Shown piece after piece: positions 892-4,051 of a stretch of 4,051 nucleotides of DNA (position 1 is the first letter of the stretch; every line of letters begins with the position of its first letter). Below the pieces are notes generated by a model. It was not told where the DNA came from. It saw only the letters and a program-made list of their open reading frames with translations, and searched no databases. The position numbers and the translations under genes are program-made. Where the stretch lies: NCBI RefSeq assembly GCF_024223415.1, contig NZ_CP100507.1; one strand, written 5' to 3'. This DNA is from Escherichia coli. GTDB taxonomy: Bacteria; Pseudomonadota; Gammaproteobacteria; Enterobacterales; Enterobacteriaceae.

Positions 892-1095
892 ATGGAAAAT
901 GGATTTGTTAATTTTTATGACCATGTTAAAGGGTATGGCTTTATAAGGCGTGAGCGTGGACGTGATGTTTTCTTTCGGTATGATGATTTTTTGTTTTTAG
1001 GGCATGATGTCGATATATGTAAAGGTATTTTAGTTAGGTTTAAATTAGAAAAAACAGATAAAGGGTTTAAAGCTGTAGCGATTCAAAAGGTATAA
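892..1095 (+). CDS. Cold-shock-domain (CspA-like OB-fold) protein, 67 aa; probable retron accessory/effector protein
   Basis: ATG at 892, 4 nt after the RT stop, preceded by AGGTGA (882-887) as Shine-Dalgarno. Translation MENGFVNFYDHVKGYGFIRRERGRDVFFRYDDFLFLGHDVDICKGILVRFKLEKTDKGFKAVAIQKV carries the two cold-shock RNP motifs (KGYGFI like KGFGFI; VFFRY like VFVHF). The track ORF begins at a TTG at 838 overlapping the RT; the ATG at 892 with its SD is preferred. Confidence 0.85.
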   Translation: MENGFVNFYDHVKGYGFIRRERGRDVFFRYDDFLFLGHDVDICKGILVRFKLEKTDKGFKAVAIQKV

Positions 1096-2958: not shown

Positions 2959-3225
2959 TTGGTTAAATTACTATTGGTGAGAAATGAATATTTCAATAAA
3001 AACAATGACTTAAAAACCGTTGCTCGGTTTGACGGTAAAACCTTAAGAGATGCCTTTTCGAGAAAAATAGCGACTTTTGATGGCAAGGTTTTAAGGGATG
3101 CCTCTTTAAAAAAAGTAGCAACCTTTGACGGTCAGAATTTAAGAGATGCTAGTTCAAAAATTATCCTGAGTGCCGATGCTGAGGTTGGGATTGTTGTTAT
3201 GGCCTTTGTAGCTGAGTTGATTTGA
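2959..3225 (+). CDS. Hypothetical small protein with three tandem 16-aa repeats and a hydrophobic C-terminus; non-ATG start (TTG 2959, or TTG 2974 / GTG 2977)
   Basis: Translation ...TVARFDGKTLRDAFSRK IATFDGKVLRDASLKK VATFDGQNLRDASSKI ILSADAEVGIVVMAFVAELI. Differences between repeat copies fall largely on synonymous third positions (Ala gct/gcg/gca; Asp gac/gat; Gly ggt/ggc; Arg aga/agg; Lys aaa/aag; Thr act/acc), a coding-type pattern. No in-frame ATG and no clear SD; in-frame stop at 2950-2952 limits the 5' end. Confidence 0.5.
   Translation: MVKLLLVRNEYFNKNNDLKTVARFDGKTLRDAFSRKIATFDGKVLRDASLKKVATFDGQNLRDASSKIILSADAEVGIVVMAFVAELI
3019..3162 (+). repeat. Tandem direct repeat, 3 x 48 bp (units 3019-3066, 3067-3114, 3115-3162)
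   Basis: Conserved cores tttgacggtaaaaccttaagagatgcc / tttgatggcaaggttttaagggatgcc / tttgacggtcagaatttaagagatgct at exact 48-bp spacing. Confidence 0.85.
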
Positions 3226-3282
3226 ATCTCATGCTGCATACCTTTTAGCCTATCGCTGGCAGGATAAGGCGCTTTCTTGTTG

Positions 3283-3310
3283 GTGACAGAAAGATAAAAA
3301 ACTTTATAAT
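3283..3310 (+). promoter_or_regulatory. Sigma70-like promoter facing the retron: -35 GTGACA (3283-3288), 16-bp spacer, -10 TATAAT (3305-3310)
   Basis: Perfect -10 consensus and 5/6 -35 at canonical spacing; predicted start about 3317. Lies about 190 nt upstream of a1, so it may drive the retron ncRNA-RT-csp transcript, but no nearer promoter could be identified by eye. Confidence 0.4.
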
Positions 3311-3507
3311 AATCAGCGAAGCGGGCGAACCACGCCTGGCTCTCGCTCTTTAACAAATGGTTACGTGTATGTTGCGCAAGGAAACCGATGCCTTGTTTTT
3401 AAGGCGATCTCGCATGAGATCATGACCGGCCTGGCCGCTAATTAATGGTGAGAACGCCCCTGAGCGTGTATCAGCACTAAAAGAATAGCGACGATTGTCT
3501 GGCAATG

Positions 3508-3520
3508 TGAGTTAAAAGTC
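3508..3520. repeat. Retron a1 inverted repeat (left arm)
   Basis: 13-bp perfect inverted repeat partner of 3780-3792; does not extend on either side. Confidence 0.6.
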
Positions 3521-3594
3521 CCAAAGAGCCAATAGAGTTTTTCCTTGCTTTCCTACTGGTCTGGCAAAATTTCATAACCAATAGGAGTTGCATC

Positions 3595-3777
3595 ATGTTT
3601 ATTATCAACATCAACATTAACGTAACCAAGAGCTCTTCATCTTGTTCTGGAGACGGTCAGATGAAGAAAAAAAGAGAGGTTGGCTCTCTGGAGGCACTGA
3701 AAAAAACACAGTTTTTGTTTTCTATGTGCTTGATTATGTTTAAAGTAATAGATTACGTATCGAAACTTTTTAACTAA
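3595..3777 (+). CDS. Hypothetical 60-aa ORF lying entirely inside the a1-a2 (msr-msd) region; possibly not translated
   Basis: ATG at 3595 preceded by AGGAG (3583-3587) at 7-nt spacing; stop TAA at 3775-3777. Protein MFIINININV... is low-complexity and Lys-rich. Position inside the putative retron ncRNA argues that it may be fortuitous. Confidence 0.2.
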   Translation: MFIINININVTKSSSSCSGDGQMKKKREVGSLEALKKTQFLFSMCLIMFKVIDYVSKLFN

Positions 3778-3779
3778 TC

Positions 3780-3792
3780 GACTTTTAACTCA
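3780..3792. repeat. Retron a2 inverted repeat (right arm), 6 nt upstream of the RT ATG
   Basis: Exact reverse complement of 3508-3520. Flanked by a near-direct repeat actttttaact (3765-3775) / acttttaact (3781-3790). Confidence 0.6.
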
Positions 3793-3798
3793 AACATC

Positions 3799-4051
3799 AT
3801 GAATAAACCCAGGTTTAATGGAACTCCTGTTGCATCTTTGGATTCTTTATCTGCGATGTTAGGCATAGAAAGAAAAAGATTGGACTGGATAGTCAAGTCT
3901 GTATCGATGTCGTACAAGCAGTTTAAGGTTGAAACAGGGAAGAATAAAAAAGAAAGGCAAATTTTTGAACCCAAGAGATCTTTGAAAGGAATTCAAAAAA
4001 AAATAAATAAAGAGATTTTTGAGAAAATTGATTACCCTCATTATTTGCATG
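3799..4051 (+). CDS. Retron-type reverse transcriptase, N-terminal 84 codons (continues past the window end; see 1..887)
   Basis: ATG at 3799, open to the last base of the window. Translation MNKPRFNGTPVASLDSLSAMLGIERKRLDWIVKSVSMSYKQFKVETGKNKKERQIFEPKRSLKGIQKKINKEIFEKIDYPHYLH is colinear with the N-terminal region of retron RTs (RQIFEPKRSLKGIQ resembles the Ec86-type IYQPSRELKALQG segment as I recall it). No Shine-Dalgarno is evident, so the start is the first in-frame ATG after a2. Confidence 0.85.
   Translation, partial: MNKPRFNGTPVASLDSLSAMLGIERKRLDWIVKSVSMSYKQFKVETGKNKKERQIFEPKRSLKGIQKKINKEIFEKIDYPHYLH

Follow-up and report, generated by a model that had tools for sequence, protein, structure and literature searches.

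The window analysed here, a stretch of 4,051 base pairs from Escherichia coli, is a complete circular ColE1-type plasmid that is 100% identical to deposited E. coli plasmids (e.g., NZ_AP027712.1) and also carries rop and a mobA-like gene. In a permissive Rfam scan the only match was RNAI of the plasmid origin (1176–1276, minus strand), with none in the region of concern here, a retron whose reverse transcriptase (RT) gene spans the end of the numbering and is followed directly by a gene for a cold-shock-domain protein. Among PADLOC models the RT is matched best by RT_V (E = 2.6e-127), then by RT_VI (1.7e-72) and RT_IV (2.8e-65). The cold-shock protein scores 85.2 bits against NCBIfam NF038236 retron_eff_Se72 (cut-off 82) and matches Pfam CSD and PADLOC CSD_V (3.4e-25). 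The noncoding RNA (ncRNA) given for Retron-Sen1 in a published retron census (Khan et al., PMC10849725), TGGTTACG...CGTAACCA, equals positions 3358–3628 save for two single-base gaps in the extracted text. The element is Retron-Sen1 (Se72), a type V retron of small Salmonella and E. coli plasmids; the type V class, as defined by Mestre et al. 2020 (PMC7736814), includes Retron-Sen1 and has the cold-shock protein as its sole listed accessory module. The locus is not new, as the retron has been known since 2001 and its hairpin and flanking repeats are mentioned in the literature. Rychlik in 2001 and Pilousova and Rychlik in 2011 are said to have placed Se72 on small plasmids, the later title reportedly names self-priming, and the 2001 study reportedly required three open reading frames (ORFs), the small one among them, for DNA production. 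The genes and the promoter of the retron are as follows.

3283–3310 (+): sigma-70 promoter of the retron transcript, GTGACA, 16 nucleotides (nt), TATAAT, with 11/12 consensus matches
3595–3777 (+): small-protein ORF, 60 amino acids (aa), with AGGAG at 3583–3587, 7 nt upstream
3799–4051 (+): 5' part of the retron RT gene, the rest lying at 1–887 of the circular plasmid, with the RT stop at 887
892–1095 (+): cold-shock-domain effector gene, directly after the RT stop

Both promoter hexamers are kept in most of the 13 aligned loci that reach that far, and we infer a transcription start near 3317. Our attention is on 3594–3792, which ends with the 3' arm (a2) of an inverted repeat whose 5' arm (a1) lies at 3508–3520. 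A sequence-only reading had proposed that short repeats and palindromes in this interval could form hairpin arms of a reverse-transcribed element (msd), RT recognition elements or the template end. In our analysis the interval is instead likely to be the protein-coding two-thirds of a structured retron transcript of ~475 nt, running from the promoter to a2, and not an msr-msd.

The evidence comes from a comparison with 46 related loci of 34–99% RT identity, drawn from plasmids of Serratia/Klebsiella, Hafnia, Pectobacterium, Edwardsiella and Halomonas, 34 genome loci, and 8 metagenomic or genomic contigs. Conservation reaches ~480 nt upstream of the RT, up to the promoter. In the 230 nt examined just before the RT, one plus-strand frame is free of stops for at least 59 codons in all 46 loci, while the other plus-strand frames reach 13–60. 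Every locus has the ORF on the RT strand, mostly 57–75 codons long and ending 15–60 nt before the RT start, and a Shine-Dalgarno (SD)-like motif stands 4–9 nt upstream of the AUG in 43/44 loci. The ORF is annotated independently in NCBI, JGI and ENA records, and its 60-aa product is identical to UniProt Q9L7Z7_SALEN (‘uncharacterized’), an entry dating from the original Salmonella plasmid. Small proteins from the different loci have the same layout, in which an N-terminus of alternating hydrophobic and polar residues leads into a basic middle and then a hydrophobic C-terminal segment; AlphaFold models a C-terminal helix over residues 31–59 (pLDDT 81–93) and gives low confidence to the N-terminal half. 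A profile of 26 members retrieved 21 cluster representatives among 1.84 billion, almost all of 49–72 aa, while no Pfam, NCBIfam or PADLOC family matched the protein (E <= 1), which databases name ‘hypothetical’ or ‘uncharacterized’. The ratio of nonsynonymous to synonymous substitution rates (dN/dS) is 0.21–0.49 for the small ORF in comparable pairs and 0.10–0.57 for its C-terminal half, where fewer helices were mapped, in three comparable pairs, although these ratios are based on few substitutions and are confounded by RNA constraints. By these comparative patterns, 3595–3777 is a predicted small-protein gene, conserved under purifying selection and situated within a folded RNA.

The RNA fold was examined with RNAalifold and with explicit pair counts on 13 aligned loci, against controls of 500 shuffles and of pairing partners slid by 1–3 columns. 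Its elements are listed in order along the transcript.

3358–3366 (+): 5' arm of helix P0 (TGGTTACGT), pairing with 3620–3628; 5' end of the published Sen1 ncRNA
3508–3520 (+): a1, the 5' arm of helix P1 (TGAGTTAAAAGTC), 13/13 complementary to a2
3521–3532 (+): 5' arm of helix P2 (CCAAAGAGCCAA), pairing with 3680–3691
3551–3586 (+): SD hairpin, with the SD of the small ORF in its 3' strand, TCCTA 3551–3555 with TAGGA 3582–3586 and TGGT 3557–3560 with ACCA 3577–3580
3620–3628 (+): 3' arm of P0 (ACGTAACCA), ORF codons 9–11; 3' end of the published Sen1 ncRNA
3634–3667 (+): hairpin with base 3634–3642/3659–3667, apical stem 3647–3649/3654–3656 and GAGA tetraloop 3650–3653; ORF codons 14–25
3680–3691 (+): 3' arm of P2 (TTGGCTCTCTGG), ORF codons 29–33
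3692–3731 (+): P3a, AGGCAC 3692–3697 with GTGCTT 3726–3731, enclosing a small variable hairpin
3780–3792 (+): a2, the 3' arm of P1 (GACTTTTAACTCA), 2 nt past the ORF stop and 6 nt before the RT start

RNAalifold recovers P1, P2, the 3634–3667 hairpin and P3a. Compensatory changes occur in 6/13 pairs of P1 (96% of cells paired) and in all nine base pairs of the hairpin (87% of cells paired, and 100% in the apical stem), while both sides have changed in 7/12 pairs of P2 (89% of cells paired) and in five of the seven pairs tested in P0 (3359–3365/3621–3627; 93% of cells paired). In P3a 3/6 pairs covary with 96% of cells paired, and the Serratia plasmid shows a compensatory change from AAAAC/GTTTT to CCCC/GGGG. 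The outer stem of the SD hairpin covaries in 4/5 pairs (86% of cells paired). For P0, P1, P2 and the hairpin, none of the 500 shuffles reached the observed pair counts, and sliding the partners by 1–3 columns halved the pairing.

The same helices can be placed in distant loci whose sequences there are unrelated. P1 lies in the same place and, where identified, its a2 arm usually begins 1–7 nt after the ORF stop; the 3' arm of P2 usually falls near codons 29–33; and the 3' arm of P0 falls mostly in codons 7–12, where Watson–Crick pairs average 8.9 (controls, 6.6). In 34/38 loci the SD and an anti-SD could form a helix of 5 bp or more (mean 5.87 versus 4.29 in controls; p = 5e-8). A hairpin is predicted at ORF codons 12–29 in 44/44 loci, with a mean z of -2.7 and 41/44 below -1. 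Its loop, in folds read by eye, is GAGA in about 28 of the 44, and the closing pairs vary among CUG/CAG, CUA/UAG and GUG/CAC. Some of the hairpin stems contain G-U pairs, which points to selection on an RNA rather than on a DNA hairpin.

Further small hairpins were seen in the transcript. Two conserved elements in the 5' arm are candidate sites of RT recognition: a covarying hairpin, GGGCG/CGCCT, at 3323–3337, and an invariant hairpin, GATCTC/GAGATC, at 3406–3429, which precedes the likewise invariant ATGACCGG. At 3673–3689 an AGAGAG/CTCTCT hairpin with a GTTGG loop overlaps the 3' arm of P2, with which it would compete; it is terminator-like on the minus strand and is kept in close relatives, though not in the Hafnia group. 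A small hairpin in the last third of the ORF (3751–3761, GAT/ATC) is GCT/AGC or AGCT/AGCT in relatives and appears by eye to covary. Three other pairings, of a1 with the conserved GCTCTTTAA motif (~3345–3355), of the 5' arm of P2 with GGCTCTC (3342–3348), and of the palindrome region described below with the 3' arm of P2, were rejected by eye as showing no covariation or complementarity. Minus-strand ORFs at 3350–3505 and 3132–3356 were set aside as spurious, their apparent conservation tracking the RNA motifs and the Serratia alignment containing three 1-nt indels.

An alternative is that the ORF has no function as a protein, being kept open by the RNA helices or serving as a leader that unfolds a1/a2 and couples ribosomes to the RT. 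The start of the RT (3799) lies 6 nt past a2 and 21 nt past the small-ORF stop with no purine-rich SD before it, and translation of the RT may rely on coupling to the small ORF or require the a1/a2 helix to open. Several conserved residues also coincide with RNA motifs such as the GAGA loop and the P2 arm, and the protein has no family match and a low-confidence N-terminal model. However, ~60 codons stay open in lineages whose nucleotide sequences cannot be aligned, the protein architecture described above is conserved, dN/dS is below 1 in the C-terminal half in all three pairs, and the small protein in the same position in type VI retrons is an experimentally shown toxin (10.1101/2025.10.22.683967). 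We regard a purely non-protein role as improbable.

Some points nonetheless weigh against our account. The peptide motif [G/R][D/E] is explained by the GAGA tetraloop itself, and is thus dual-coded. In minimum-free-energy folds the SD pairs no better than it does with shuffled upstream sequence (shuffles pair the SD in 50–80% of cases); only the targeted helix test and the covariation supported its pairing. P0 crosses P1 and P2, implying a pseudoknot or else two alternative states. For type V, the cold-shock-domain protein is the accepted effector, and translation and toxicity of the small protein would be extrapolations from related systems.

Against this background the four features flagged in 3594–3792 can be evaluated individually. 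Two of them are located as follows.

3604–3615 (+): tandem hexamer, ATC AAC ATC AAC, ORF codons 4–7 (I-N-I-N)
3765–3775 (+): upstream copy of the near-direct repeat, codons K-L-F-N and the start of the stop codon

The palindrome AAGAGCTCTT at 3628–3637 is exact as described, as are the 9-bp stem (TCTTCATCT at 3634–3642 with AGATGAAGA at 3659–3667, 100% complementary around a 16-nt loop) and the near-direct repeat (ACTTTTTAACT at 3765–3775 and ACTTTTAACT at 3781–3790, the second copy lying inside a2). The tandem hexamer ATCAAC x2 is present but had been placed one base off, at 3605–3616. The a1/a2 assignment holds, with 13/13 complementarity and covarying pairing.

Chance levels were estimated by simulating the 199-nt interval 20,000 times with a first-order Markov model, the inverted repeat being judged in 501 nt. 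The probabilities were 0.048 for the tandem hexamer, 0.22 for a 10-bp palindrome, 0.045 for a perfect 9-bp stem with a loop of 3–30 nt, 0.13 for an exact 8-nt direct repeat within 30 nt, and 0.0016 for the 13-nt perfect inverted repeat. By sequence alone, a1/a2 is the only feature clearly above chance. These individual probabilities of 0.05–0.22, and the lack of conservation of three of the four features, are what would favor chance in AT-rich sequence as the origin of them all. That explanation is extremely improbable as a whole, since compensatory changes accompany the conservation of the hairpin and a2 in the 13 close and ~30 distant loci. Chance origin is refuted for these two and stands for the palindrome and the upstream repeat copy.

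The folding and covariation check that had been suggested for these features divides them: the 9-bp stem and a2 are conserved and covary, while the palindrome, the upstream repeat copy and the nucleotides of the hexamer are not conserved. The palindrome core GAGCTC becomes GAGCGC, GAGCGA or GACCTA in homologues, and the palindrome is an accidental junction of a conserved AAGAGC with the 5' arm of the hairpin. The hexamer as a nucleotide repeat is confined to close relatives, and what is conserved there is the alternating hydrophobic/polar N-terminus of the protein. The upstream repeat copy does not persist beyond close relatives either (e.g., GTATTCTTC in the Hafnia group); the conserved part is a2 with the preceding TAATC only, and the near-direct repeat is an accidental resemblance of the last codons to a2. 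The conserved 9-bp stem could serve in recognition or in a tertiary contact. The 3' arm of P0, which also lies in the interval, had been overlooked.

The larger claim, a canonical msr-msd between a1 and a2 with the 9-bp hairpin as msd stem and the other repeats as RT recognition elements or template ends, fares worse. A perfect 13-nt inverted repeat directly upstream of an RT does suggest such an arrangement, and the interval folds well (z = -4.6) with a conserved, covarying hairpin. But the interval is filled by a conserved, translatable, SD-preceded ORF of 60 codons, and a1 runs without a gap into P2 (3520|3521) in 13/13 loci, with no conserved unpaired G. The hairpin, with its G-U pairs and its invariant GAGA loop in the alignment, resembles an RNA element and not an msd, and the stretch 5' of a2 in the alignment consists only of the last ORF codons and a hairpin of 3–4 bp. 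The published Sen1 ncRNA and its bacterial donor site lie upstream, and a Haliea type V construct bounded by a1/a2-type repeats is entered in the same census as ‘RTDNA: None’ (PMC10849725). Simon 2019 likewise sets the ORF flanked by repeats apart from the msd, and reports for Se72 no apparent priming G and no observed 2'-5' branch. A canonical msr-msd between a1 and a2 is thus very unlikely.

A better candidate for the template lies upstream of a1, next to a short direct repeat that recurs in the SD hairpin.

3436–3507 (+): likely msd template, 72 nt, a long imperfect hairpin (3436–3490) with a 17-nt 3' tail
3497–3505 (+): direct repeat copy 1, GTCTGGCAA, two bases before a1 and near the 3' end of the proposed template
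3559–3567 (+): direct repeat copy 2, GTCTGGCAA, in the loop of the SD hairpin

The distance between the invariant motifs CCGG and CAATG is constant at 77–79 nt in 13 loci, whereas the sequence between them is highly variable and always contains a long hairpin. Such variability would fit the stem of an msd. Se72 is reported in the literature to make a 72-nt DNA, and a stretch of 72 nt that ends at 3507, the base before a1, starts at 3436, the first base of the long hairpin. The retron census (PMC10849725) gives a Sen1 ‘bacterial donor location’ of 83;129 (~3440–3487), which is the inside of this hairpin, upstream of a1. If the RNA ended at a2, with a2 paired to a1, synthesis would begin exactly at 3507 and proceed upstream, and a2 probably takes part in priming. 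The self-priming reported for Se72 fits this placement, as do the missing priming G and 2'-5' branch in Simon 2019. From this geometry we consider it likely that the msd is at 3436–3507, immediately 5' of a1. The supplements of Simon 2019, Mestre 2020 and Zhang 2025 yielded no msd coordinates. Transfer of the template from the Ec48 (type IV) ncRNA, whose reverse-transcribed DNA has been sequenced, was also tried and rejected, as its local alignment to the Se72 region scored below shuffles.

Two further points weigh against this placement. The census (PMC10849725) also has a ‘human donor location’, 203;220, that corresponds to the SD-hairpin loop; two such different donor sites (83;129 and 203;220) imply that the msd position was uncertain to the census authors too. 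In addition, canonical geometry with P0 in the role of a1/a2 would place the template at 3549–3620, and the resulting multicopy single-stranded DNA would contain the SD hairpin, the start codon and the hexamer. P0 is strongly supported and bounds the published ncRNA, editing from the human-cell donor was 1.7x that of Eco1, and distant loci have a long variable hairpin after the second direct-repeat copy. In canonical retrons, moreover, the template abuts the 3' repeat. On the other side, a G after the 5' arm of P0 is not consistent (at +1 in 8/32 loci), the 2'-5' branch is not reported for Se72, and the bacterial donor is the upstream hairpin. In type VI retrons, the copy of the repeat in the msd lies in the first arm and the copy near the ribosome-binding site (RBS) belongs to the riboregulator (10.1101/2025.10.22.683967). 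Fold-back priming from the RNA 3' end also fits P1 and not P0, because only ~40 nt of transcript lie 5' of P0. We judge a template at 3549–3620 to be unlikely; were it correct, the hexamer region would be the template end, much as the sequence-only reading proposed. The census entry itself (Terminal 553) differs from the plasmid in lacking one C (3457–3460 CCCC) and one T (3569–3571 TTT), which is either a strain difference or a loss in text extraction.

The plasmid contains no exact copy of GTCTGGCAA beyond these two. In 37/44 loci both sites carry a repeat of the GTC(T/A)G type, and in several lineages the two copies change together, to GTCAGGCAA in Morganella and Leclercia and to GTCTGACA, GTCAGGAGT and GTCTGGAG in three further loci (L045, L019 and L011, respectively). 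A similar arrangement is known from type VI retrons. Zhang 2025 (bioRxiv 10.1101/2025.10.22.683967) described in Retron-Vpa2 a ‘hybrid RNA’ of ~470 nt with three arms, which contains a small toxic-protein ORF with its RBS in a stem-loop and an a1/a2-like repeat after the ORF. Of its 7-nt direct repeats, one belongs to the msd and the other to the loop of the RBS riboregulator; the authors propose that the repeat, once reverse-transcribed, pairs with the riboregulator and so relieves the repression of translation (10.1101/2025.10.22.683967). In Retron-Sen3, Garcia-Rodriguez 2026 (10.64898/2026.04.27.721009) reported covarying pairs within the coding sequence of the type VI small protein.

Se72 is like type VI in several respects. 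The RTs form sister clades, and in both the RT template and a small-protein ORF share a single long transcript, with three arms from a central node, the SD or RBS in a stem-loop and an a1/a2-like repeat after the ORF. Covarying pairs fall within the coding sequence of both, and each has short direct repeats, one copy in the msd arm and another in the RBS-hairpin loop; in the one type VI locus we examined the order is the same: repeat 1, first arm of the inverted repeat, repeat 2, SD, ORF, second arm. Both are triggered through RecBCD or phage recombination functions, the Se72 triggers being lambda Gam and loss of RecB (bioRxiv 10.1101/2022.08.27.505566). There are also differences. Se72 has an RT that best matches RT_V, lacks the helix-turn-helix (HTH) gene and has a cold-shock-domain gene after the RT instead, and its ORF is directly upstream of the RT. 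Its small protein is unrelated, with a beta-prone N-terminus and one helix compared with the all-helical type VI protein, and its repeat motif is GTCTGGC rather than TCGACTGG. Se72 has in addition the long-range helix P0 that crosses P1 and P2, and its DNA is detectable without phage, according to the literature. Se72 is not a member of type VI, but its RNA layout is alike.

We tentatively hypothesize, by analogy, that type V retrons including Se72 are hybrid-RNA systems like type VI, in which the ~60-aa protein would be a toxic effector or co-effector switched on by the DNA; production of the protein, its toxicity and the mode of priming are here inferred. The P0/P1/P2 fold and the SD hairpin would keep the small protein silent. 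A 72-nt DNA would be copied from 3436–3507, self-primed with a1/a2 as the priming helix, and would normally be removed by RecBCD. Its 5' end would carry the complement of GTCTGGCAA and could anneal to copy 2 in the loop of the SD hairpin, opening the hairpin so that the small protein could be translated. Inhibition of RecBCD would let the DNA accumulate and thereby lead to production of the small, probably toxic protein, the logic put forward for type VI hybrid RNAs. In this scheme the cold-shock-domain protein would act as a chaperone of nucleic acids or as a regulator, and not as the sole toxin.

This account departs from the searchable literature on Retron-Sen1, in which the ORF has been seen as an unknown ORF or an ‘alternative msr’ and the only effector is the cold-shock protein. 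With canonical retrons such as Retron-Eco1/Ec86, Se72 shares an inverted repeat next to the RT, small conserved hairpins, one long variable hairpin and a short DNA. It differs from them in that no conserved branching G follows either candidate a1, the likely template precedes the 5' arm of the a1/a2 helix and not its 3' arm, a protein-coding ORF fills the a1–a2 interval, and the retron region has no Rfam match. The messenger RNAs of type I toxin-antitoxin systems (hok, tisB) are also alike in having a short ORF, a hydrophobic C-terminus of the product and an RBS buried in a long-range fold; no antisense RNA is evident for Se72, however, and its proposed activator is reverse-transcribed DNA. 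In the searchable literature, with subscription papers outside its scope, we found no report of a conserved type V small-protein gene in a hybrid-RNA-like fold. Nor did that searchable literature yield a family-wide account of the ORF, P0/P1/P2, the GAGA hairpin and the co-varying repeats.

Several observations concern the surroundings of the retron. In one Klebsiella pneumoniae locus of the comparison set (L003, NZ_CP068315.1, locus 16–771) an IS1 lies directly upstream of the start of homology, equivalent to window position ~3538. Missing from this copy are the promoter, the msd-like hairpin, a1 and the 5' arm of P2, while the cold-shock gene, the RT and the small ORF are retained. It may be a knock-out that arose naturally, or a rewired element with expression from IS1. 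An 88-aa ORF (2959–3225, plus strand) just before the retron promoter encodes three tandem 15-residue repeats (ATFDGKxLRDA...) and a hydrophobic tail, with a weak sub-threshold Pfam match to a 5-fold beta-flower protein (E = 2e-4). Near-identical plasmids vary here in ORF or match length, possibly in repeat number, and the Serratia plasmid has 48 aa with two repeats. Next to it, GGTGCGTACAATTAAGGGATTATGGTAAAT at 2924–2955 resembles the XerCD core of the ColE1 cer site.

The findings bear on the use of type V retrons as tools, for either set of ncRNA boundaries adopted in editing tools, 3358–3628 or a1 to a2, severs one or more conserved helices. They also bear on what has made Se72 odd among retrons, namely the missing branching G, the reported ‘self-priming’, the reported need for three ORFs in DNA production and the unexplained link to RecBCD. 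A conserved small-protein gene set in covarying helices, together with type VI-like repeats, would bring these oddities into one testable framework, and suggests that the hybrid-RNA design predates the split between type V and type VI retrons.

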